40,599 bases of DNA, from positions 1 through 40,599 of the forward strand of contig SDNY01000017.1 of assembly GCA_004524535.1 (NCBI GenBank), in the 5' to 3' direction. Position 1 is the first letter of the stretch; every line of letters begins with the position of its first letter. Origin of the DNA: Promethearchaeota archaeon. GTDB lineage: Archaea > Asgardarchaeota > Lokiarchaeia > Sigyniarchaeales > SOKP01. The translations under genes and the position numbers were made by a program. Below, in pieces: positions 27,230 through 40,599 of the stretch. The notes beneath the pieces are model-generated. The model searched no databases. It was given only the letters and a program-made list of their open reading frames with translations, and was not told where the DNA came from.

Positions 27230-27393
27230 TTCAATCTAATCTAATTTTTTTTTCTGAAATATATAAGGTTCTTTTTCTTTTAAGAATTTATTACTATCCT
27301 AAGAAAAATTCTTTCAATGAAAAACCTATTCTTTATAAATAATAAATAAATAATAATATATAATATTCAAAATCAAGTAAATGGAAAAGAAAA

Positions 27394-27459
27394 ATGATTA
27401 GAAAAAACTTAATAGTTCCTTCATCAACTTGGTTTTGTATTTGTTGTTGGCACGCATAG
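27394..27459 (+). CDS. putative trp leader peptide MIRKNLIVPSSTWFCICCWHA
   Basis: 21-codon uORF with 2 TGG codons, ending 176 nt before trpD; homologous to the uORF before trpE. Confidence 0.7.
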   Translation: MIRKNLIVPSSTWFCICCWHA

Positions 27460-27514
27460 AGCGTGCGCAATGGCTTTATTTATTTTAGAATTTCTTGCTT
27501 TTATCTCTTTATAA
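27443..27514 (+). terminator. putative attenuator hairpin plus U-rich tract
   Basis: GCACGC-ATAGA-GCGTGC (27450-27466), extended by GTTGTTG/CAATGGC, followed by TTTATTTATTTTAGAATTTCTTGCTTTT. Confidence 0.65.
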
Positions 27515-27635
27515 TTCTAAAAATTTTCTGTTTGAATTGTAAAGAATAAAGGGGTTTTCTACAATATTAGAAATTCTAATTCTCTTAACATTTTTTAAAA
27601 TTTTATCAAAAAAAAAATAAAAATATTGCATAAAA

Positions 27636-28691
27636 ATGTCTACAGAAAAAATAGTTGATGGTTTGAAAAAAATAACTCAAAAAGTAAGCTTAACAAGTGA
27701 AGAAGCAGAAAATATAATGAGAGAGATAATGTCCGGTAAGGTACAAGACGCTCAATTAGGAGCATTTTTAACAGGTTTAGCTATGAAGGGAGAGTCTGTT
27801 GATGAAATCACAGGGTTTGCTCTAATAATGAGAGAATTTGCAAATCAAATTGAACCTAATGTAAAGGGAGATTTATTAGATACTTGTGGAACGGGAGGAG
27901 ATAAGATTAAAACATTCAACATTAGTACACTTTCGGCCTTAGTTGTTGCAGGAGCTGGAATACCCGTTGCAAAACACGGGAATCGTGCTGTAACTAGTAC
28001 ATGTGGTAGTGCAGATTTATTGGAGGGTTTAGGAGTGAAAATTAATTTACCTCCTGAAGAAGTCAAAAATTGTATTGAAAAAGTAGGTATTGGATTTATG
28101 TTTGCGCCTTTATTTCATCCGGCGATGAAATATGCTATGCCTACTAGAAGGGCTCTAAAATTAAGAACTGTCTTTAATATACTTGGCCCATTAACAAATC
28201 CTGCAAAAGCCAATTGTCATGTATTAGGCGTATTTCAAAAAGATTTAATCCCTGTTATGGCCAAGGTATTAAACGGCTTGGGTGCAAAACATGTTTTTAC
28301 AGTTCATAACTCATATGGTATTGATGAAGTAGCACCAGTAGGAATAAATTATATCACAGAACTTAAGAATGGAACAATTGAGAGTTATGCAATTACCAAT
28401 GAAGATTTTGGCATTCCTGATTGTTCTATAAATGATATATTAGCGGGAAACACTGAAGAAAATCTTAAAATCGCAGTGAATATCTTAAAAAATAAAGTTA
28501 TAGATGCAAAATATAACACGGTATTAATGAATGCTGCATTAGCTCTTAAAAGTGTAAATAAGGCAAGCGATATCAAAGAAGGAATTGAAATCGCTAAAAA
28601 TGTTATTGAATCTGGAAGTGTTTTTGAAAAACTTAAACAATTTATCGAAGTATCCGGTGGAACTCAAGATAAGTTAATGAGTTTGTTATAA
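27636..28691 (+). CDS. trpD: anthranilate phosphoribosyltransferase
   Basis: DTCGTGGD, FNIST, KHGNRAVTS and RTVFNILGPLTNPA motifs. Confidence 0.97.
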   Translation: MSTEKIVDGLKKITQKVSLTSEEAENIMREIMSGKVQDAQLGAFLTGLAMKGESVDEITGFALIMREFANQIEPNVKGDLLDTCGTGGDKIKTFNISTLSALVVAGAGIPVAKHGNRAVTSTCGSADLLEGLGVKINLPPEEVKNCIEKVGIGFMFAPLFHPAMKYAMPTRRALKLRTVFNILGPLTNPAKANCHVLGVFQKDLIPVMAKVLNGLGAKHVFTVHNSYGIDEVAPVGINYITELKNGTIESYAITNEDFGIPDCSINDILAGNTEENLKIAVNILKNKVIDAKYNTVLMNAALALKSVNKASDIKEGIEIAKNVIESGSVFEKLKQFIEVSGGTQDKLMSLL

Positions 28692-28702
28692 AAAAAAAAA
28701 GC

Positions 28703-29509
28703 TTGAGATTAATGATTTCGAATAAAATAAAAGAAATAGTTGAGCAACGGAAAAAGTCTATTCAAAGAGACATAGATTTCATGAGAGATATAGGTAGTGA
28801 GATTTTCAAAAATAATCGGAGACCTTTAAGTGAGATTATTAAAAATAATCAAGGGATTTCAATTATTTCAGAGATTAAACCAGCATCTCCTACTTTAGGT
28901 AATATTAAAAAGAATATTAATGTTAAGGAGATTGCTACAGAAATGGAAAGTGCAGGGGTAATTGGATTAAGCGTTTTAACTGAACCTAATTATTTTAACG
29001 GATCCTATGAAAATCTCAAGTTAGCGATACAAAGTACGAAATTGCCGTGTTTAATGAAAGATTTCGTTGTTGATGAGATCCAATACAAGATTGCTGCGCA
29101 AATAGGAGCAACTAATATTTTGATTATAAATTCAATTTGCAATTTGGAGGATTCCTACCGCAAAGCTTTAGAATATAGTTTAGAACCTCTGATTGAAATC
29201 CATAATATTGAAGAACTCAATGATATTCGTCATTTATATGATATAGGTTTTAAACCTACATTAATCGGAGTGAATAATCGAAATTTGAAAACATTGGAAA
29301 TTGATCTAAACACTTCTAAAGAGATTATACCCAAAATAAAGAGGGAATTTGGGGATGATATAATTGTTGTTAGCGAGAGTGGTGTGAATATCATAGAGAA
29401 TATTAATTTTCTCTTACAATATCAAGCTGACGCATTTTTAATAGGATCCTCAATAATGAAATCAAATAACATAAAAGAAAAAATACTATCATTAAGAGGG
29501 GTAAATTAA
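28703..29509 (+). CDS. trpC: indole-3-glycerol phosphate synthase
   Basis: ISEIKPASPT, SVLTEP, MKDF, GVNNRNL and VSESG motifs. Confidence 0.96.
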   Translation: MRLMISNKIKEIVEQRKKSIQRDIDFMRDIGSEIFKNNRRPLSEIIKNNQGISIISEIKPASPTLGNIKKNINVKEIATEMESAGVIGLSVLTEPNYFNGSYENLKLAIQSTKLPCLMKDFVVDEIQYKIAAQIGATNILIINSICNLEDSYRKALEYSLEPLIEIHNIEELNDIRHLYDIGFKPTLIGVNNRNLKTLEIDLNTSKEIIPKIKREFGDDIIVVSESGVNIIENINFLLQYQADAFLIGSSIMKSNNIKEKILSLRGVN

Positions 29510-30156
29510 TGGATTACGTTAAGGTTTGTGGCTTAAAAGAAACTGAACACATTGAATTATGCAGTAAAAATGAAGCTAATGCCGTAGGTTTCATTTACAA
29601 TGTTCCTAATTCTCCAAGAAATTTAGAAAAATCCAAATTAATGAATCTTTTAAATGACATTCCTAAGAATTTATTAAGAGTAGTTGTATTTAAACCCCAA
29701 AACGTGTTAGAATTAGAAAAAATAACCAATGAAATAGATGTTGATTTATATCAGATTCATAATAATTTTGAAGAACAAGAATTGGATGAGATTTCAATTG
29801 ATTTAAAGAAAAAGATTATTTTAGCTTTACAAGTAAATCCTTCCAATAAAGATGACGTAATTAATAAGATTAATAAATATTATGACCAATTTTTTGGATT
29901 TTTAATTGATAATAGTGAAGGTCATGGTACAGAATTTAATTTTAATATCGTTGCCGATATCATAGATAATACCAAAGGAGCGAGTATAATAGTCGCTGGA
30001 GGTATTAATATTAATAATATTGAAATTATAATTAAAAATTTAAACCCTTATGGAATTGATGTAAGTAGCTCATTAGAATCCGAAAAAGGGGTTAAAGATC
30101 CATTAAAAATTGAAAATTTTTTAAAAAAAGTAAATGAAATTAAGAAAACATTATGA
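29509..30156 (+). CDS. trpF: phosphoribosylanthranilate isomerase
   Basis: VKVCGL, SPR, QIH, AGGI, IDVSSSLE and GVKD motifs. Confidence 0.95.
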   Translation: MDYVKVCGLKETEHIELCSKNEANAVGFIYNVPNSPRNLEKSKLMNLLNDIPKNLLRVVVFKPQNVLELEKITNEIDVDLYQIHNNFEEQELDEISIDLKKKIILALQVNPSNKDDVINKINKYYDQFFGFLIDNSEGHGTEFNFNIVADIIDNTKGASIIVAGGININNIEIIIKNLNPYGIDVSSSLESEKGVKDPLKIENFLKKVNEIKKTL

Positions 30157-30165
30157 GGAATAAAT

Positions 30166-31368
30166 ATGAAATATAATGGGATATATCCTAATAAGTGCGG
30201 TAAATTTGGGGATTTCGGAGGTATTTTTGCTCCAGAGGTTCTCATGCCGGCACTTTGTGAGCTGGATGAAGCTTTTGAAAAATATAGAAATGACGAAAGT
30301 TTCAAGAAAGAGTTTTATCAGATACTCGAATCATATGGGGGCCGTCCAACACCTTTATTTTATGCTAAAAGACTAAGCGAAAATGTAGGATGCAAAGTAT
30401 ATTTGAAAAGAGAAGATTTACTTCATGGTGGAGCTCACAAATTAAACAATGTAATAGGACAGGCTTTATTAGCCAAGAGAATGGGAAAGAAAAAGCTTGT
30501 AGCAGAAACAGGAGCAGGACAACATGGGTTTGCTACTGCTATTGCTGGAGCTTATTTCGGTATGGAAACAAAAGTATTCATGGGAAAAGTAGATATAGCC
30601 AGACAAGCTTACAATGTTTATCGCATGCAATTACTTGGTGCTGAAGTAATACCTGTGGAAAGTGGTTCAAAAACATTGAAGGATGCAATTAATGATGGAC
30701 TTAGATATTGGATCACCAATGTAAGAGATACTCACTATTTAATGGGAAGCGTTGTCGGTCCACATCCATATCCTCTATTAGTTAGAGAATTCCAAAGAAT
30801 TATTGGAATTGAAACTAAAAAGCAAATAATGGAGTTAGAGGGTAGATTACCTAATGCAATCATGGCTTGTATTGGTGGTGGAAGTAATGCTATAGGAATA
30901 ATGTATGATTTCATTGAAAATGAGAACGTCCAGTTAATTGGAGTTGAGGCTGCTGGAGAGGGTTTAGAAACAGGAAAACATTCAATAGCATTAGGTTTAG
31001 GTCGCAGAGGCGTATTACATGGATCCTTAATGTATCTATTACAAAATGAATATGGTAATATATTAAAGAGTCATTCTATAAGTGCGGGACTAGACTACCC
31101 TGGTGTTGGTCCCGAACATTGTTTTTTAAAAGAATTATCAAGGCTTAGAGTAGAAACCGCAACAGATAATGAGACTCTAGAATCTTTTCAAAAATTATCC
31201 GTTTTAGAAGGGATAATTCCAGCATTGGAGTCATCGCATGCACTTGCATGTCTGGAAAAAATTAAGGGTGAGTTTAATAAGGATGACATTGTAATAATTA
31301 ATTTATCTGGTTCAGGTTCTAAAGATCTAAATATAATCAAACAACGTTTGGAGTTTAAAGTAAAATGA
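30166..31368 (+). CDS. trpB: tryptophan synthase beta chain (TrpB1)
   Basis: [31 protein letters not shown] and [15 protein letters not shown] motifs. Confidence 0.97.
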
Positions 31369-32204
31369 ATGATACAAATAGAATTTTGGACCTTTTTAAT
31401 GAGAAGAATTCATTAGAGGAAAAATATTTTATGCCATTTCTAGTTTGTGGAGATCCTTCGATTGAGCAGTTTATATCGATGGTTAAAAAGATCGCTCTAT
31501 ATATAGATCTTTTAGAATTAGGTGTGCCATTTAGCGACCCAATTGCTGATGGTCCTACCATTCAAGAGGCAAATATGAGAGCTTTCGAAGCAGGCATCAA
31601 TACAAAAGTAGCGCTCGATACAATTAAGAAAATTAGGACATTTTTCACTAAACCAATTGTTATTTTAACTTATTATAACATTCTAATTCAAGGGTCAGAG
31701 ACAATAGAAAGTTCTTTGGATAATACATTGAGAAGATTCAAGGAGAGTGGTATTGATGGAATTGTTATCGCCGATCTACCAATTGAGGAAGCAGGCTTAG
31801 CTTTAAAATATTGCAAAAAGCACGATATATCACTTATATTTTTGATTGCTCCTACTACTACCGACGATAGATTAGAAAAGATCTTGAAAGAAGCAAGAGG
31901 ATTTATCTATTTAATATCAATATTGGGTGTTACTGGTGCTCGAGAAAAAGTAGCTCAAATCACGAAAGAAACGATTAAAAGAGTAAAAGAAAAAATCAAA
32001 ACGAGGATTCCTGTTTTCTTGGGATTCGGCATATCTAAACCAGAACATGCATCCGCTGTAGCTGAATTAGGAGCTGATGGCATTATCATTGGCTCGGCAA
32101 TAATAGATATCATTAAGAGAAATTTAAGCAATTTTAATAAAATGGAGCAAGAATTAATCGAATTTGTATCAAGTATAAAAAATGCGATAAAGAGGTCGAA
32201 TTAA
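31365..32204 (+). CDS. trpA: tryptophan synthase alpha chain
   Basis: [22 protein letters not shown] and GFGIS motifs; ATGA overlap with trpB. Confidence 0.97.
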
Positions 32205-36495: not shown

Positions 36496-37722
36496 TTATG
36501 AACGGTCCAACTTCCTCTTTTTTGCGAACAAATCTTTTAATTCGGTCATAAGTGATTGTCTAACGTTTGGACCCTGGAGTCTTAGTGTAGATTCTGTAGA
36601 CGGGTGTGATGGTGGTGAGGCTTCGATAGGACCTGCAAAGATTTGCTGAGATAATTCTTTCGGAACAGTAACTGATTCAATAGCAACGATTCTTCTTTCT
36701 AACTCATTACAAAACTCAGATAACGTTATAACAGCGTTTAGCGTTTTTTTAATCGTTTCGCCTAAGCTGCTAATTTTCTCGGTAGTTGCTTCAGTGTCGT
36801 AGAGAAATGAATCTTTATCCCTTAATATCTCTTTTAATGATAATGAAAACTTTGGTTTCTTTGATATTAATGAGTAGATTGAGCTAAGATAGACTTCATA
36901 GTCAAATTTTTTTTCCTTAAGCAAAACGCTAACAATATCCTTAACGACCTCTACTTGAAGAGATATGTCAGGATCATCTCTAATTTCAGGGTCATATTTA
37001 TGAATTAGGACTATAATCTGAGGGTAAATTTCAATTCTATCTAAAATTTGAAGGATTTCATTGAAATATTGAAAATTATCATCAAATTTTTCAGGATCTT
37101 GTACATCTATAACGTAGACCAATAAATGGGTATTTAGAAAATTTTGTTCTTTTGAAAGATGGCTTTTCCTATATTCTTGCTGGCCCCCAAAATCCCAAAT
37201 CGCTAACTCCATATCATGTGTTTTTATTGTCTGGAAATCTATACCTTTCGTTGGCTCTAATTCGGCAATATTTTCAATCCCTAAGCGCCCTCCAATTTTT
37301 GATATAATTGCTGTTTTACCCGCATTATCAAGCCCTAATACTACTACTTTTTGTTTTTCCTTTTCTATTGGAAAAGATTTTTGTTTGATTAATTCTATAA
37401 GTATGGTAATTGTAATTGCTTTCTTTATTTTCTCTTCTAATTCTGGTTTAGCTTTCAATATATTCTTTACTAATGATTTAGTCTCATCCGATTTAAATAA
37501 TTCTTTAAAAGGGTCCTCTTGATTCAATTTCGTAAAATCTTTAATTTTTGAAATCCTGAATATTTTTTGTATATTTTCAACGTCCCTCTCTTCTAAAAAC
37601 TTATAAGCAGAAAGTGGTAGTTTAAACACACTCTCGATATCCTTCAGTTTGTCTAATTTAACTGTTTTTGGATTCAAAAACTTAGAAATTAAATCTAATT
37701 TACTCGATAATTTTTTGGACAT
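36496..37722 (-). CDS. Arf/Rag-like small GTPase with N- and C-terminal extensions
   Basis: G1 GLDNAGKT, G2 PTKG, G3 WDFGGQ, G4 HKYD, G5 SSI. Confidence 0.88.
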   Translation of the reverse strand: MSKKLSSKLDLISKFLNPKTVKLDKLKDIESVFKLPLSAYKFLEERDVENIQKIFRISKIKDFTKLNQEDPFKELFKSDETKSLVKNILKAKPELEEKIKKAITITILIELIKQKSFPIEKEKQKVVVLGLDNAGKTAIISKIGGRLGIENIAELEPTKGIDFQTIKTHDMELAIWDFGGQQEYRKSHLSKEQNFLNTHLLVYVIDVQDPEKFDDNFQYFNEILQILDRIEIYPQIIVLIHKYDPEIRDDPDISLQVEVVKDIVSVLLKEKKFDYEVYLSSIYSLISKKPKFSLSLKEILRDKDSFLYDTEATTEKISSLGETIKKTLNAVITLSEFCNELERRIVAIESVTVPKELSQQIFAGPIEASPPSHPSTESTLRLQGPNVRQSLMTELKDLFAKKRKLDRS

Positions 37723-37850
37723 AATTTAAAATACACCATTATATGTTTTGGCATCGTCAATATTAATACATTTAAAATTATTTCTTTCCTTTTAAATTAT
37801 CTTCATTATCCTTTACTTCATTATCCTCTATGAGATAAATATTACCCAAT

Positions 37851-38474
37851 TTAATTTACCTGCGGAATTAATAGGATAAAATTACTCCCCTTTGAATAAT
37901 CATTTTCTATTCTATCTTCAACCCAAATCTTACCATCATAGCTCCCAATGATTTTGTGAACAATTGTGAGTCCGACTCCCAACCCTTCTGACGTTTTTTG
38001 AAAAGTTTCTCTGAATAATTTAGCTTTTACTTTATCTTCTATCCCAGGACCATTGTCTTTAAATTGGAATTTAACATATTTAATAGTCTCTAAAATCTCA
38101 GATGAAATCTTAATATCGATAGTGATTTTCTCCTTATCAGTATGTTTAATTGCATTAATAAGAATATTCTCTATTACTCCATTAATTAGGTCATTTGCTA
38201 AAATTCTCAGATTTTTATCAAAATCTTGAATATTAATACTAAAATCCTTATTTCTAAAAGTTTTTTTTATATAATCTATACCTTCTTCGATAATATCATG
38301 AACTTTTATAGGACGCTTACTTTCCTCACCTTTTTCAAGTTTTGATATTAAATGTACATTTCCTGCTAAAATTTGAGCTTTATTAATTTGTTCTAAAATA
38401 ATTGAATTTAGTTTAGCTATTTGTGCTAAATTCTCTGGTTTATCTATAATCTTAGATAGGGCTTCACTAGACAT
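37851..38474 (-). pseudogene. 5'-truncated histidine kinase (HATPase_c domain only)
   Basis: N box ENILINAIKH, G1 DNGPGI, G2 GLGVGL. The upstream frame reads KYDLIQVIL back to a stop, with no H-box and no sensor domain. Confidence 0.6.
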
Positions 38475-38605
38475 TAAAATAACTTGAATTAAATCATATT
38501 TTTAATATTTAAATCAACATTAATAATTTCCAAAACCTTCTGGATAAGTTCAATTTTTCTTCACTTGCTTGTAATTTTATGTTTTATCCTCAAATCGTTA
38601 AGATA

Positions 38606-38776
38606 TTATGTATCATAAGTTTCTTCATGGAATTCATTTTCATATTCGCCTTTTTCTTCATCCTCTTTTTTATTCCAGTCATCATCCTCGCTTTTTGTTT
38701 GTTTTTCTTCACGATTTTTACTCCTCTCGTTCCATTTATCCGTTTTCATTTTTTTGCTATCTTTTTTTTTTCTCAT
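38606..38776 (-). CDS. 56-aa highly charged small protein (not in the ORF track)
   Basis: MRKKKDSKKMKTDKWNERSKNREEKQTKSEDDDWNKKEDEEKGEYENEFHEETYDT, with a GGAG SD upstream. Explains the Phe-rich shadow ORF on the + strand. Confidence 0.55.
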   Translation of the reverse strand: MRKKKDSKKMKTDKWNERSKNREEKQTKSEDDDWNKKEDEEKGEYENEFHEETYDT

Positions 38777-39218
38777 AATTTTCGCTCCGATACATATTTT
38801 CTAACACACAATTCAAAGCTCATTTAAGATTTTTAAATGGAATTGTTATAAGTTATAAGCTTCTAAATATTCCTTACAAGATTTCTAACTAATCTTAGAA
38901 TAAGAAGTTAATAATGTAAAGAAAAAAATCTACATTGTTTAAGATTAATTAGCTTTCTCTTATTTTATCTTAGTCATTATTATTTTTAAAAAGAAAGATT
39001 AATTAAAAAATTGAAGCTTCTTTAGAAGAAAAACTTGAAAAGTCCCTGCTTTCAAAAGAAAATTTTTATTAAAACAATATAATTTCATATTGAATTTAGA
39101 TTCATACGAGCCATTATTTAAGATATTATTAAACTAACGTTATGCTGTTAAAATAAAATATAAATATAAGCTATCCTTAGTTTATTCATATTATACAAAA
39201 CAAAGTTGGTAAGTAAGA

Positions 39219-39290
39219 ATGAATGACTTGAATGAAAGTACTGGTTTTTGTAAATCAACTTGGTTTTGGGCTTGGCGTTGGCACGTGTAG
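39219..39290 (+). CDS. putative trp leader peptide MNDLNESTGFCKSTWFWAWRWHV
   Basis: 23-codon uORF with 4 alternating TGG codons, ending 143 nt before trpE. Confidence 0.8.
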   Translation: MNDLNESTGFCKSTWFWAWRWHV

Positions 39291-39333
39291 AACGTGCGCA
39301 ATGGCTTTACTTCTTTTAGGATTTCTTTTTATT
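39276..39333 (+). terminator. putative attenuator hairpin plus U-rich tract
   Basis: GCACGT-GTAGA-ACGTGC (39281-39297), extended by CGTTG/CAATG, followed by GCTTTACTTCTTTTAGGATTTCTTTTTATT. Confidence 0.68.
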
Positions 39334-39433
39334 AAATGCATGAATAGAATAGAGATTCTAATTCAAATTATAAAAATTATGATTTTTTTACAGATTAAAG
39401 AAAAATAATAAAAAATTAAAAAGTTGGTTAAAA

Positions 39434-40599
39434 ATGGAATTTGACATTCATATTGAAAAGCTTGGCTTCATATCTAATTCGAATATTTTTGGATTCTACA
39501 AATATTTAGTGAATCTGTATGATTTAAAAAAGCATGCTCTATTAGAGTCCGCTTCAGAAAGTACAAAAGAAACCTTATATAGCTTCATTGCTCTACAACC
39601 TGATTTCATGATTGAAATTAATGAGGATAAGTTTAAAATATATGATATCACTACTGCCCGAGGTGAAACGATTAAAGAATTTGTGGAATCTAGAGATCCT
39701 GCTGCGGAAAGACCGCACAATCCCTTACCATTTAAAGATAATGTAGAATATAATATGGTCGCGCTCGATACTTTGAGCCATCTCACACCTTATTCTAATC
39801 TTCCTTTCACGGAGTTATTCCCAAGGAACATCTTTTACGGCGGAATGCTAGGGTATATTGGGTATGACGTAGTTGCTCCTTATGTGGGTTATAAATCTAC
39901 AAGCGAATTTCCAGATATTTTAATGGGGCTCTATACAAAAGCACTGGTCTATTCACATAAATCAAATGCATTATTCATGATTGATAATAGCATTGATGAT
40001 TATTCAAAAGATAAAGATATCCGATATCAACTCAGCTTATTTAATAGAAATCATAATTCAGATGAAGATGGAGAAATTCCCTCGGATATCGAAGAGGTGG
40101 ATGAATCTTATTTCAGATCCAATACAAGTAAAAGCGCTCATGAAAAAATGGTAGAAAAGACAAAAGAATACATTTATGATGGAGATATTATACAAGCAGT
40201 TATCTCCCGAAGGCTCTATACAGAGACAAAAATCGACCCTATGGCAATTTACGAAGTTCTAAGAGTTCTTAATCCATCGCAATATATGTACAATATAAAT
40301 TTTGGAAATATTCGCATCATTGGGAGTAGTCCAGAAGCACTTATCTCAAAAAATAAAGATATTCTTAATACTGTGCCAATTGCCGGAACAATAAGAAGAG
40401 GCAAAACTCCAGAAGAAGATACAAAATTGGAAAAGGAATTGTTAGATGATCCAAAGGAAAAGGCTGAACACATCATGCTTGTGGATTTAGCGCGCAATGA
40501 CCTAGCCAAAGTTTCATATCCAGGTTCTGTTGACACATTTGAACTCATGACAATTCAAAAATATCAAAAAGTTCAGCATATTGTTAGTAAAGTGAGAAG
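39434..40599 (+). CDS. trpE: anthranilate synthase component I (3' end outside the window; not in the ORF track)
   Basis: LLES, GGMLGYIGYD, GDIIQAVISR, NPSQYMY, GSSPE, PIAGTIRRG and KEKAEHIMLVDLARND motifs. Confidence 0.95.
   Translation, partial: MEFDIHIEKLGFISNSNIFGFYKYLVNLYDLKKHALLESASESTKETLYSFIALQPDFMIEINEDKFKIYDITTARGETIKEFVESRDPAAERPHNPLPFKDNVEYNMVALDTLSHLTPYSNLPFTELFPRNIFYGGMLGYIGYDVVAPYVGYKSTSEFPDILMGLYTKALVYSHKSNALFMIDNSIDDYSKDKDIRYQLSLFNRNHNSDEDGEIPSDIEEVDESYFRSNTSKSAHEKMVEKTKEYIYDGDIIQAVISRRLYTETKIDPMAIYEVLRVLNPSQYMYNINFGNIRIIGSSPEALISKNKDILNTVPIAGTIRRGKTPEEDTKLEKELLDDPKEKAEHIMLVDLARNDLAKVSYPGSVDTFELMTIQKYQKVQHIVSKVR

Follow-up and report, generated by a model that had tools for sequence, protein, structure and literature searches.

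The window, that is, the whole stretch of 40,599 nucleotides that was analysed, derives from an archaeon of the phylum Promethearchaeota (kingdom Promethearchaeati, Archaea), in agreement with the Asgard host proposed in the first-pass annotation of this DNA. The gene encoding anthranilate synthase component I (trpE) runs off its end and is preceded by a short upstream open reading frame (uORF) in which that annotation had noticed four TGG codons within seven. These codons are present, and the trpE leader comprises the following features:

39155..39166, plus strand: conserved TATA-like box (AAAATATAAATA), a block aligned in most of 21 copies of the element
39196..39210, plus strand: 5' strand of helix P1 in the 5' UTR (CAAAACAAAGUUGG), from duplex prediction, RNAalifold and two-sided changes
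39219..39290, plus strand: leader ORF of 23 codons, ATG at 39219 and TAG at 39288-39290, encoding MNDLNESTGFCKSTWFWAWRWHV before the stop
39254..39268, plus strand: 3' strand of P1, codons Ser-Thr-Trp1-Phe-Trp2 (UCAACUUGGUUUUGG), from folds, duplex prediction, RNAalifold and alignments
39261-63, 39267-69, 39273-75 and 39279-81, plus strand: the in-frame TGG (Trp) codons of the leader ORF
39276..39303, plus strand: stop-codon hairpin P2, from folds and RNAalifold
39305..39319, plus strand: U-rich tract after P2 (CUUUACUUCUUUUAG), from sequence and alignment
39316..39326, plus strand: 5' strand of helix P3, "c" (UUAGGAUUUCU), pairing with 39351-39361 in minimum free energy (MFE) folds
39351..39361, plus strand: 3' strand of P3, "c-prime" (AGAGAUUCUAA), which starts the conserved block RGAAATTCTAATTCAAATT, from folds and duplex prediction
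39383..39389, plus strand: T7 run, separated by 44 nt from the start codon of trpE
39434..40597, plus strand: trpE (Pfam Chorismate_bind and Anth_synt_I_N)

The trpE ATG lies 143 nt downstream of the leader stop. The sequence TGGNNNTGGNNNTGG is seen three times in the 40.6-kb window with an expectation of 0.07 (three or more in 0 of 100 shuffles), and two of these occurrences overlap inside the uORF. Judging from the usual archaeal distance between TATA box and start site, the leader transcript would begin near 39188, ~27 nt past the TATA box and ~30 nt before the uORF ATG; no consistent Shine-Dalgarno motif was seen by eye before the leader ATG in the alignment of the 21 copies. The stop codon does fall in the loop of a hairpin, as first described (GCACGT-GTAGA-ACGTGC at 39281-39297, then CTTTACTTCTTTTAG), and a U-rich tract follows directly. 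Beyond that description the leader has a helix between the 5' UTR and the Trp codons (P1), a downstream helix (P3) and a T6-T10 run. A second ORF, from a conserved AUG in GCAAUGG, was considered and set aside: by eye, it ends after 2 to ~36 codons among the copies and its frame is not kept. Over 38900-40599, the only RNA run found, a metatranscriptome sharing 5% of the sampled words, contributed one contig of 269 nt, located at 39851-40116 inside trpE, and none on the leader.

The homologous module reported before trpD was recovered as well. Allowing up to three mismatches, the P2 hairpin pattern occurs at one other place in the window, 27450-27466 (GCACGC-ATAGA-GCGTGC; expected 0), within a second uORF with a stop-codon hairpin that lies 176 nt upstream of trpD and has the following surroundings:

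27331..27341, plus strand: TATA-like box (CTTTATAAATA) ahead of the trpD leader ORF, in register with that of the trpE leader in the alignment
27368..27378, plus strand: 5' strand of P1 (CAAAAUCAAGU), from fold and duplex prediction (-15.6 kcal/mol, matched by 0 of 200 shuffles)
27394..27459, plus strand: second leader ORF, before trpD, encoding MIRKNLIVPSSTWFCICCWHA before the stop
27445..27472, plus strand: P2 of the trpD leader (UGUUG-GCACGC / AUAGA / GCGUGC-(G)-CAAUG), with the stop TAG (27457-59) in the loop
27485..27495, plus strand: 5' strand of P3 (UUAGAAUUUCU), from sequence comparison, MFE folds and duplex prediction
27569..27579, plus strand: 3' strand of P3 (AGAAAUUCUAA), followed by a T6 run at 27591-27596
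27636..32204, plus strand: trpD-trpC-trpF-trpB-trpA operon (Pfam)

The two leaders share a block of ~75 nt that is ~85% identical and reaches ~40 nt beyond the stop codon. The trpD leader of the window has only two Trp codons, and carries three TGT (Cys) codons where relatives have TGG or CGT.

A DNA scan of one Promethearchaeota (Asgard) family yielded 21 copies of the element in 17 genomes, all of which were aligned after scan matches to the T-rich tail alone (query start above 40) had been dropped. Nineteen retain an ATG-started frame ending in WFWxWRWHA-stop. Conservation of the Trp codons in frame, which the first-pass annotation had made a condition of its reading, was checked in 20 copies and held against the other two frames: the 10 codons before the first Trp codon (W1), themselves poorly conserved, are stop-free in 20/20 copies in the Trp frame and in 5/20 and 7/20 in the others, and an in-frame ATG is found in 19/20 copies versus 1/20 and 0/20. 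The leader C-terminus reads x-W-F-W-x-W-R-W-H-A-stop, with the stop at W1+27 in 19 of the 20, while the N-terminal two thirds of the peptide (17-26 codons in total) are not conserved. As in an attenuator, start, frame, Trp codons and stop are thus kept while the rest of the peptide drifts.

Downstream of the 21 copies we find trpE (five), trpA (five, and one trpA fragment), trpD (six), a trpE remnant (one) and a GNAT-methyltransferase fusion (three), with a confirmed trpE next after trpA in three of the trpA-linked loci and, in most copies, 139-217 nt between leader stop and gene start. Apart from the three copies before the fusion gene, the element stands in front of Trp-related genes, as had been predicted for relatives. 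Its distribution follows the pathway: five near-complete genomes of the family are without the element, four of which also lack a TrpE match. Other families of the class have more diverged W-x-W-x-W leaders, which precede trpD or a TrpB2-like gene. One candidate before trpD, in a genome assembled as a single contig of 6.0 Mb, ends in KAWPWHKL-stop and has a 13-bp hairpin across its stop codon. Among 20 further genomes, a uORF with at least three Trp in eight codons precedes trpD in 8/20 on the sense strand, compared with 0/20 antisense and 5/1000 shuffles; for at least two Trp in eight codons the counts are 14/20, 1/20 and 64/1000. Both the copies in the family and the diverged leaders bear out that the uORF is a leader rich in Trp codons whose frame and association with trp genes are conserved; as expected of an attenuator, a short ORF with clustered Trp codons adjoins cognate genes (trpE, trpA-trpE, trpD or TrpB2-like).

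P1 is a 13-bp helix between the 5' UTR and the codons for Trp1 and Trp2; in the trpE leader its duplex reaches -14.9 kcal/mol, a value matched by 0 of 200 shuffles (duplexfold). RNAalifold predicts P1 and P2 each independently from 10 leaders, the latter with 11 pairs. In the trpE leader, P2 consists of the 5' arm CGUUG-GCACGU (Arg-Trp4-His-Val), the loop GUAGA with the UAG at 39288-90, and the 3' arm ACGUGC-(G)-CAAUG. Its predicted stability lies between -9 and -18 kcal/mol in 17 of the 19 copies; the remodelled loci L026 and L025 have values of -8.8 and -7.2 kcal/mol, respectively. About 95% of the P2 cells are paired in an alignment of 15 sequences and likewise in one of 23, and overall 90-91% of cells are paired in these two alignments versus 28-45% when the partner is slid. 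For P3, there are 13 leaders among 18 in which no more than 11 of 200 shuffles match the best duplex that c forms with the downstream region.

Seven pairs change on both sides among the 23 sequences, an alignment fitted to the model, and this is matched by 0 of 500 shuffles; six of them belong to P1 (6 of its 13 pairs) and one to P2. With 15 sequences, P2 has no such pair and covariation is not above shuffles. On this comparison, covariation supports P1 and, only weakly, P2. The single "compensatory pair" (C-G versus U-A), first taken as direct evidence of selection on RNA structure, does occur, as U-A in the trpE copy and C-G in the trpD copy. It sits at the loop-closing position, where most other copies have a C/A mismatch, and is therefore weak evidence: the window copies represent two single pair-creating changes and not a double compensatory one. 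The stop-codon hairpin itself recurs with different stems in the diverged leaders, as unrelated as GCGCG/CGCGC, GUUGGC/GCCAAC, GGCGUU/AACGCC and CCUGGCG/CGCCAGG.

Since GCACG..CGTGC and AGAA-T-TTCT are palindromic as DNA, and the interval from c-prime to the gene contains a TATA-like stretch and a T-run, the P2 palindrome, possibly together with the AGAAWTTCT repeats, might be read as operators of a TrpY-type Trp-responsive repressor, with the uORF incidental or secondary; control of archaeal trp genes by a DNA-binding repressor has a known precedent. We consider this very unlikely. The open frame, in-frame ATG and fixed stop are conserved far beyond the other frames, and stems of differing sequence keep the same place over the stop codon from one lineage to another. 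Substitutions fit G-U pairing only when the sense strand is read (three G-U at one P2 pair; A-to-G in c and c-prime), the spacing between c and c-prime ranges from 7 to 56 nt, and P1 joins two blocks ~45 nt apart with changes on both sides. The lineage-variable stems and sense-strand G-U pairs are indirect evidence and, as sequence patterns, appear to point against a TrpY-type operator.

Of the analogous leaders for other amino acids that had been suggested (His, Leu, Phe), one for Leu is encoded in the same genome, as is one for Ile; no His-rich uORF is found in the 275-nt spacer upstream of hisG (L237:1345-2328), and the prephenate dehydratase (PDT, pheA) family has no match in the genome. 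The Leu-rich uORF precedes leuA, and 7-12 of the last 14 residues are Leu in 14 of 15 related loci. An Ile-rich uORF precedes a second LeuA-family (citramalate-synthase-like) gene in 22 of 23 loci; it is accompanied by a helix of 12/12 bp in 21 of 22 loci, with G-U and C-G replacements, by a weak 6-bp candidate antiterminator, and by a TATA motif like that of the Trp leaders ~27 nt before the ATG. For the Ile leader, alternative pairings of the 1:2, 2:3 and 3:4 kind can be drawn, which makes it the clearest classical case. The Ile leader appears to be leaderless and the Leu leader, inspected by eye, is probably so too. These uORFs were among 204 candidates from a scan of the organism's own genome, which has an AT-rich background; of 10 picked by eye for Pfam analysis, two precede LeuA-family genes and eight have no cognate link. 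A KARI_N search gave weak partial matches only.

The Leu and Ile counterparts bear on two further explanations. An RNA-binding protein similar to TRAP, or a small ligand, rather than the ribosome, might read the UGG repeats and the P1-P2 fold; four UGG triplets with 6-nt spacing inside a conserved two-helix fold would suit such a factor, as would the high nucleotide conservation even at third codon positions. It would leave the conservation of frame, start and stop aside, and a UGG-binding factor cannot account for the Leu and Ile leaders because they use their own cognate codons. Moreover, TRAP (Pfam PF02081) has no match in the 99%-complete genome (the B. subtilis control was positive), and Rfam gives no match at gathering score in the whole window and none at E up to 10 in 39150-39440, Trp_leader included. 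We thus regard a protein- or ligand-read element as highly improbable. Even less credible, and in our view extremely improbable, is a functional Trp-rich micropeptide that resides next to trp genes by coincidence. The strongly conserved C-terminal decapeptide speaks for it, yet the conserved Phe (UUU), Arg (CGU) and His-Ala are explained by RNA pairing, the N-terminal two thirds show no conservation, the leaders stand before four different Trp gene contexts, and the Leu- and Ile-rich counterparts precede committed genes of their own pathways.

The region between leader and gene was inspected for signals related to termination. A stable hairpin plus U-rich tract is seen in the form of P2 and its 3' flank; by the bacterial-type rule this combination does not qualify, and the corresponding scan found no terminator. 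T5-T10 runs recur downstream of c-prime in most copies, and the T7 run of the trpE leader may serve for oligo-U termination of the archaeal type or belong to a second promoter; the conserved region of P3 and T-run could instead be a second promoter as a whole, and promoter-like sites were no more frequent than in shuffles. Genome-wide (30% GC), 48% of 2003 long ORFs have a run of T5 or longer in the next 60 nt and 46% have one of A5 or longer, so that T-runs are too unspecific for calling a terminator. To our knowledge, hairpin-dependent termination is not established for archaeal RNA polymerase; a 2026 review names oligo-U and aCPSF1/FttA as the archaeal termination machinery (PMC13675443).

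The absence of a separate antiterminator, already noted from the sequence, was borne out by folds and duplex scans. None was conserved above shuffles in MFE folds of 10 full leaders, computed free or with the ribosome masking either Trp3 or the stop codon. Scanning 12 leaders for duplexes between the downstream region and the P1 5' strand, the Trp-codon strand or the P2 3' arm gave no conserved pairing above shuffles, nor did folds of the segment from the Trp codons to the P2 5' arm (19 copies) reveal a conserved alternative above that level.

The same stalling sensor might be imagined with a different output, in which folding of P1, P2 and P3 gates the downstream start site or access of RNases. 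Everything that argues for a translated Trp-rich leader fits a translational or RNA-stability output equally well, no canonical terminator was found by the scan, and the Ile leader, with its TATA box ~27 nt before the ATG, appears leaderless; translational attenuation is moreover known in bacteria, as described in a preprint on mycobacterial cysteine leaders (10.1101/834739). Against it, leader strands show no pairing above shuffles with the ribosome-binding region of trpE or trpD, in most copies 139-217 nt separate the gene start from the leader stop, and a hairpin with a U-tract behind it is the classic layout for termination. A duplex sequestering the ribosome-binding site (RBS) of the mycobacterial type was likewise not apparent, the best duplexes of leader strands up to the gene start being not above shuffles in 12 leaders. 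Pairing of the Trp-codon strand with the gene RBS was set aside as a candidate: the best partner lay within ~25 nt of the gene start in 5 of 12 leaders, with energies in the shuffled range. Altogether we judge this output unlikely.

With its conserved in-frame Trp-rich ORF, the pairing potential of P1, P2 and P3, the linkage to Trp genes and the sister leaders for Leu and Ile, the element is probably a cis-acting, Trp-sensing trp leader, an archaeal version of ribosome-mediated leader-peptide attenuation. As no antiterminator was found and RNA was limited to the contig in trpE, we take attenuation as the best-supported reading and infer leader translation, stalling and the termination step. 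Transcription would begin ~27 nt past the conserved TATA box, and the leader RNA could fold into P1, formed by the 5' UTR and the codons Thr-Trp1-Phe-Trp2, and into the GC-rich P2, whose 5' arm holds the codons Arg-Trp4-His-Ala/Val, with the stop codon in the loop and the U-rich tract directly 3'. A ribosome on the leader would have to decode four Trp codons within a stretch of seven. Under a shortage of charged tRNA-Trp it would stall on these codons, its footprint melting P1 and, from Trp2-Trp4 onward, covering the P2 5' arm; with P2 blocked, RNA polymerase would read through into trpE or trpD. With an ample supply of Trp, the ribosome would reach the stop codon and depart, P1 and P2 would form, and transcription would end in the U-rich region. 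Archaea terminate transcription intrinsically at oligo-U or with the assistance of aCPSF1/FttA, and either could act here. Without any ribosome both hairpins would form, and the default state would therefore be OFF. Since there is no antiterminator for the P1 and P2 strands, the proposed mechanism does not account for the timing of the hairpins relative to the polymerase. Assuming a ribosome footprint of ~+12 nt, stalling at Trp1 (A site) would probably not prevent P2 from forming, which counts against the mechanism. So do the lack of a consistent Shine-Dalgarno motif before the leader ATG, the weak covariation of P2 and the presence of only two Trp codons in the window's trpD leader.

Leader-peptide attenuation is a textbook bacterial mechanism. 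We found no description of it for Archaea in full-text literature searches, and the word stem "attenuat" is absent from the 2026 review of termination signals across domains (PMC13675443). If the leaders work as read, Asgard archaea couple translation to transcription closely enough for regulation, hairpins in RNA are able to influence termination or the fate of transcripts in archaea, and small unannotated ORFs carry regulatory information in Asgard genomes. It is tempting to speculate, at slightly less than an even chance, that members of the class Promethearchaeia use true leader-peptide attenuation for at least three pathways (Trp, Leu and Ile), with a pioneer ribosome coupled to RNA polymerase deciding on the hairpin/oligo-U stop. 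If true, this would be the first ribosome-mediated attenuation in Archaea and would imply tight regulatory coupling of transcription and translation in the closest prokaryotic relatives of eukaryotes. Constructs with the Trp, Leu and Ile leaders can be tested directly in cultured Asgard archaea or in heterologous hosts among the archaea, and as a set these leaders provide a sequence signature to annotate trp, leu and ile regulons in Asgard MAGs.

The Asgard leader shares with bacterial trpL and the his, leu, thr, ilv and pheA attenuators a short ORF of cognate codons upstream of the operon and, ahead of the first gene, a hairpin with a U-rich tract behind it; P1, a 5' helix holding the regulatory codons, is comparable to the bacterial 1:2 pairing, and as in bacteria several pathways (here Trp, Leu and Ile) have their own leaders. 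It differs in its archaeal host and TATA-box promoter, in the lack of a detectable 2:3 antiterminator for Trp, in Trp codons that alternate (W-x-W-x-W-x-W) unlike those of bacterial trpL, and in a termination machinery that would be archaeal (oligo-U, aCPSF1/FttA); unlike the Rfam Trp_leader, it matches no Rfam family in sequence or structure. The position of the stop codon, in the loop of the putative terminator, would leave the role of anti-terminator to the ribosome itself. The E. coli pyrBI and pyrE leaders are coupling-type attenuators without antiterminator, in which the ORF overlaps the terminator hairpin, as the Asgard ORF does its putative one, and ribosome occupancy decides on the hairpin. 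They sense the distance between polymerase and ribosome via UTP-dependent pausing and not an amino acid, unlike the Asgard leader, whose signal would be tRNA-Trp charging. TrpY, the repressor known from archaeal trp control in Methanothermobacter, and TRAP of B. subtilis serve the same pathway, but as protein-based sensors of free Trp. The mycobacterial polycysteine sORFs reportedly act on translation through RBS sequestration, the inhibitory duplex being blocked by a stalled ribosome (10.1101/834739); they differ from the Asgard Trp leader in being bacterial, translational and specific for cysteine, and the Asgard Trp leader has a putative 5' UTR of ~30 nt and no RBS pairing found. In both systems, short ORFs that are not annotated and carry runs of one amino acid stand in front of matching operons, and the mycobacterial sORFs are leaderless, as the Ile and probably the Leu leader of the Asgard archaeon appear to be.

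The first-pass annotation described a Trp-codon uORF before trpE, with its stop codon in a hairpin loop and a U-rich tract behind it, and a homologous module before trpD. All of these features were recovered in the window:

39219-39290 (+): trpE leader uORF, ATG start, 23 codons, MNDLNESTGFCKSTWFWAWRWHV then stop, with four TGG codons (Trp1-Trp4) at alternate positions
39281-39297: trpE-leader hairpin GCACGT-GTAGA-ACGTGC, its loop containing the stop codon TAG (39288-39290)
27394-27459: trpD leader uORF, MIRKNLIVPSSTWFCICCWHA then stop, 176 nt upstream of trpD in a trpDCFBA operon

A T-rich stretch directly follows the trpE-leader hairpin, and trpE starts at 39434. Three instances of TGG-N3-TGG-N3-TGG were counted in the 40.6-kb window, the trpE uORF containing an overlapping pair, against an expectation of 0.07, and this window-wide count was reached in 0/100 shuffles. 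With up to three mismatches allowed, the hairpin pattern has a single other match in the window (27450-27466), inside the trpD leader. Both leaders share a block of ∼75 nt at 85% identity, extending ∼40 nt past the stop codon, and they are the only copies in the 3.66-Mb genome (99% complete). The trpD leader has lost Trp codons, carrying TGT (Cys) where relatives have TGG or CGT, and retains the residual pattern W-F-C-I-C-C-W; its counterparts in sister genomes G044 and G005 are intermediate, keeping 3 and 4 Trp.

When 100 same-family genomes were scanned at the DNA level, 19 further strong matches emerged and brought the total, the two in the window included, to 21 copies in 17 genomes; matches confined to the T-rich tail were excluded. 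In 19 of the 21 the uORF is intact, starts with ATG, spans 17-26 codons and ends in x-W-F-W-x-W-R-W-H-A-stop; of the other two, one is truncated by a contig end and one is degenerate, with in-frame stops at Trp2 and Trp4. The latter (L042:1782-1931, minus strand, G032:C147) is the third copy in its genome, has TAG and TGA at these codons and only a TrpA fragment downstream, and thus looks like a decaying duplicate. We compared all three frames over the 10 poorly conserved codons preceding the first Trp in the 20 complete copies: this stretch is free of stops in 20/20 in the Trp frame versus 5/20 and 7/20 in the others, and upstream of the Trp codons 19/20 have an ATG in frame versus 1/20 and 0/20, which is the pattern expected of a translated frame. 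The Trp-rich leader is therefore conserved and, as far as sequence comparison can tell, apparently translated.

The copies are linked exclusively to Trp-related genes. The downstream gene is trpE in five of the 21 copies, trpD in six, trpA in five plus one fragment (with trpE confirmed after trpA in three such loci), a trpE remnant in one and a fusion of GNAT and SAM-methyltransferase in three, the last behind a variant leader (..WFWVLHWHA-stop). This placement suggests that the fusion is a Trp-related enzyme under the same control; a ..WFWVLHWHA/V-stop leader precedes the 385-aa protein at L024:1744-2901 (+) and also at the loci L021, L041, L121 and L123. Behind the intact leader at L016:1200-1470 (minus strand, G037:C12) there seem to be the first ∼40 codons of trpE but no ORF of at least 60 aa, so that trpE appears broken there. 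The conserved frame and the link to trp genes support the kind of element first proposed, a putative leader peptide by which an Asgard archaeon would sense Trp (Promethearchaeota, the Asgard group, being placed under kingdom Promethearchaeati, Archaea).

Three helices were delineated around the trpE leader, of which P1 and P3 were missed in the first-pass annotation:

39196-39210: P1, 5' strand, conserved 5' UTR block
39254-39268: P1, 3' strand, codons Ser-Thr-Trp1-Phe-Trp2
39276-39303: P2, stop-codon hairpin, extended to CGUUG-GCACGY / RCGUGC-(G)-CAAUG
39316-39326: P3, 5' strand, UUAGRAUUUCU
39351-39361: P3, 3' strand, AGRRAUUCUAA (loop between strands 7-56 nt)

P1, which measures 13 bp in most copies, is predicted by RNAalifold from 10 leaders in an ordinary MAFFT alignment, and its duplex energy was matched by at most 4/200 shuffles in 15/20 copies; in diverged copies both strands change together (e.g. 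L025, -19.3 kcal/mol, 0/200 shuffles). The stability of P2 lies between -9 and -18 kcal/mol in 17/19 copies (-8.8 in L026 and -7.2 in L025). Across 15 MAFFT-aligned sequences 91% of P1 and P2 cells are paired, versus 29-44% with the partner slid. The conserved pairing potential puts Trp1-Trp2 into P1 and both Trp4 and the stop codon into P2. Covariation in this alignment did not exceed shuffles (two pairs changed on both sides, a number reached in 34/500); among 23 model-aligned sequences, an alignment that leans towards structure, there were seven such pairs (six in P1, one in P2; 0/500 shuffles). The compensatory pair previously offered as evidence of a covarying hairpin is a loop-closing position with C opposite A in most copies, and that argument is not established. 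Better evidence for P2 comes from comparing the diverged leaders: the stop codon again falls inside or at a hairpin, the last Trp/Arg codons forming the 5' arm, and the stems are unrelated (GCGCG/CGCGC, GUUGGC/GCCAAC, GGCGUU/AACGCC, CCUGGCG/CGCCAGG and a 13-bp stem in genome G118).

The best P3 duplex was matched by at most 11/200 shuffles in 13/18 leaders, and its substitutions are A-to-G, keeping G-U pairs on the sense strand. A T5-T10 run lies 2-40 nt past P3 in 11/18 leaders (no run of T5 or longer was found in six); P3 with this run may mark where transcription actually terminates, or else act as a second promoter. The P2 palindrome might also serve as a DNA operator, but this is unlikely since the leader reading frame is conserved, the stems differ between lineages and G-U pairing is confined to the sense strand. 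A conserved TATA-like box (AAAATATAAATA) ∼57 nt upstream of the leader ATG would put the start of transcription immediately ahead of the P1 5' strand. In a genome of another family (L217:254-362, minus strand, G114:C20) the complement of the Trp codons (CAAAACCAA) of the leader ..GHFWFWWAWRL-stop is found not in the 5' UTR but past the stop codon, where it forms the 5' arm of a hairpin, and pairing of Trp codons with a CAAAAYCAA strand hence recurs in a different arrangement.

We propose that when Trp-tRNA is scarce the ribosome would stall on the leader Trp codons, melting P1 and covering the 5' arm of P2, so that P2 is blocked and transcription continues; a ribosome that completes the leader and departs would let P1 and P2 form, and transcription would end in the U-rich region past P2, either intrinsically or with aCPSF1/FttA. 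According to PMC13675443, a Lokiarchaeota aCPSF1 orthologue can substitute for Methanococcus aCPSF1. The termination mechanism is not established: P2 fails the bacterial terminator rule in a terminator scan, U runs are frequent in the window's genome, and a ribosome stalled at Trp1 may leave P2 uncovered. Folds and duplex scans of the Trp leaders revealed no antiterminator for P1/P2, in agreement with the first reading. The main rival to termination is an output at the level of translation or RNA stability, as in mycobacterial Cys sORFs.

The first-pass annotation suggested a covariance-model search; our model matched 21/130 family genomes but 0/19 genomes of three sister families. The model is narrow, and weak matches proved to be diverged leaders, upstream of a TrpB2-like gene (MPIIRSSTWQWPWRWQ and MAPVKINSWRWQWAWRWQ, each then stop) and of trpD (MANEKIIPFRWHWSWRA then stop, and others). 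The element's wider spread across the class emerged from trpD itself, located in 39/160 class genomes: in the upstream regions of 20 of these that had no strong model match, a uORF with at least three Trp in eight codons was found in 8/20 sense versus 0/20 antisense and 5/1000 shuffles, and one with at least two Trp in 14/20, 1/20 and 64/1000, respectively, the positives including three other families. Of five near-complete family genomes lacking the element, four yielded no TrpE match, so element and pathway are absent together; the fifth has trpE in a trpB-trpA-trpE operon and a leader ..LGWQWPWRFE-stop upstream of trpD.

An intergenic uORF scan of the window's genome, with ten candidates picked by hand for Pfam annotation, added two sister leaders for other amino acids:

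L046:1708-1818 (-), = G000:C76:5510-5620: Leu leader, MKMLQYNKTLKVKNLLRQLSPFRLLLKLLDLLLLLQ then stop, 93 nt upstream of a LeuA-type gene
L047:1719-1775 (-), = G000:C78:8436-8492: Ile leader, MKKIVPISVIGIIIIGII then stop, upstream of a second LeuA-family gene

The Leu leader has 10 Leu among its last 14 residues and is kept in 14/15 related loci (7-12 Leu in the last 14); a 9-bp hairpin (AUAAGAAUC/GAUUCUUAU) separates it from the gene. The second LeuA-family gene probably encodes citramalate synthase, which in many archaea opens the isoleucine pathway. Its leader, kept in 22/23 related loci, has a TATA box ∼27 nt upstream of the ATG, suggesting a transcript that is probably leaderless. In 9/9 folds inspected the start codon and Lys-Ile-Ile-Pro codons pair with the Gly-Ile-Ile-stop codons; the next helix, of 12 bp (GAAAUUUUAAAC/GUUUAAAAUUUC), is paired at 12/12 positions in 21/22 loci, with G-U replacements and one C-G double replacement, and U-rich sequence often comes after it. 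The stop-codon region could instead pair weakly (AAUUUC/GAAAUU) with the 12-bp helix at its 5' strand, which would complete a classical 1:2, 2:3, 3:4 scheme. Of the analogous leaders first envisaged, Leu (and Ile) ones thus exist, but the window's genome yielded no His-rich leader upstream of hisG and no match to the pheA family. That the Trp, Leu and Ile pathways each have a leader enriched in the cognate amino acid makes a ribosome sensor much likelier than a reading specific to UGG or to the palindrome; TRAP is absent from this 99% complete genome.

The Asgard element would work like bacterial leader-peptide attenuators, but differs from them in domain, promoter and termination machinery and in having no detected antiterminator; the window search gave no Rfam match for it. 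Our full-text literature search turned up no paper that reports attenuation by leader peptides in archaea or Asgard, and the attenuation literature retrieved mentions archaea only in passing; subscription-only papers and supplements lay outside the search, so an earlier description may exist.

TrpE is 76-94% identical to Asgard relatives, and the next-best among the matches returned are bacterial at 34-43% (Planctomycetales, Omnitrophota and Nitrospirota; L156-L216). By this ranking on identity, the trp genes may have come from bacteria. One TrpE record at 84% identity (L141) is titled Methanomassiliicoccales, possibly a mislabel. Immediately upstream of the trpE leader lies a gene-free 740-nt spacer (38475-39218) without Rfam matches, preceded at 36496-38474 (-) by a 408-aa Gtr1/RagA-Arf-like small GTPase adjoining a 207-aa HATPase_c-domain protein.
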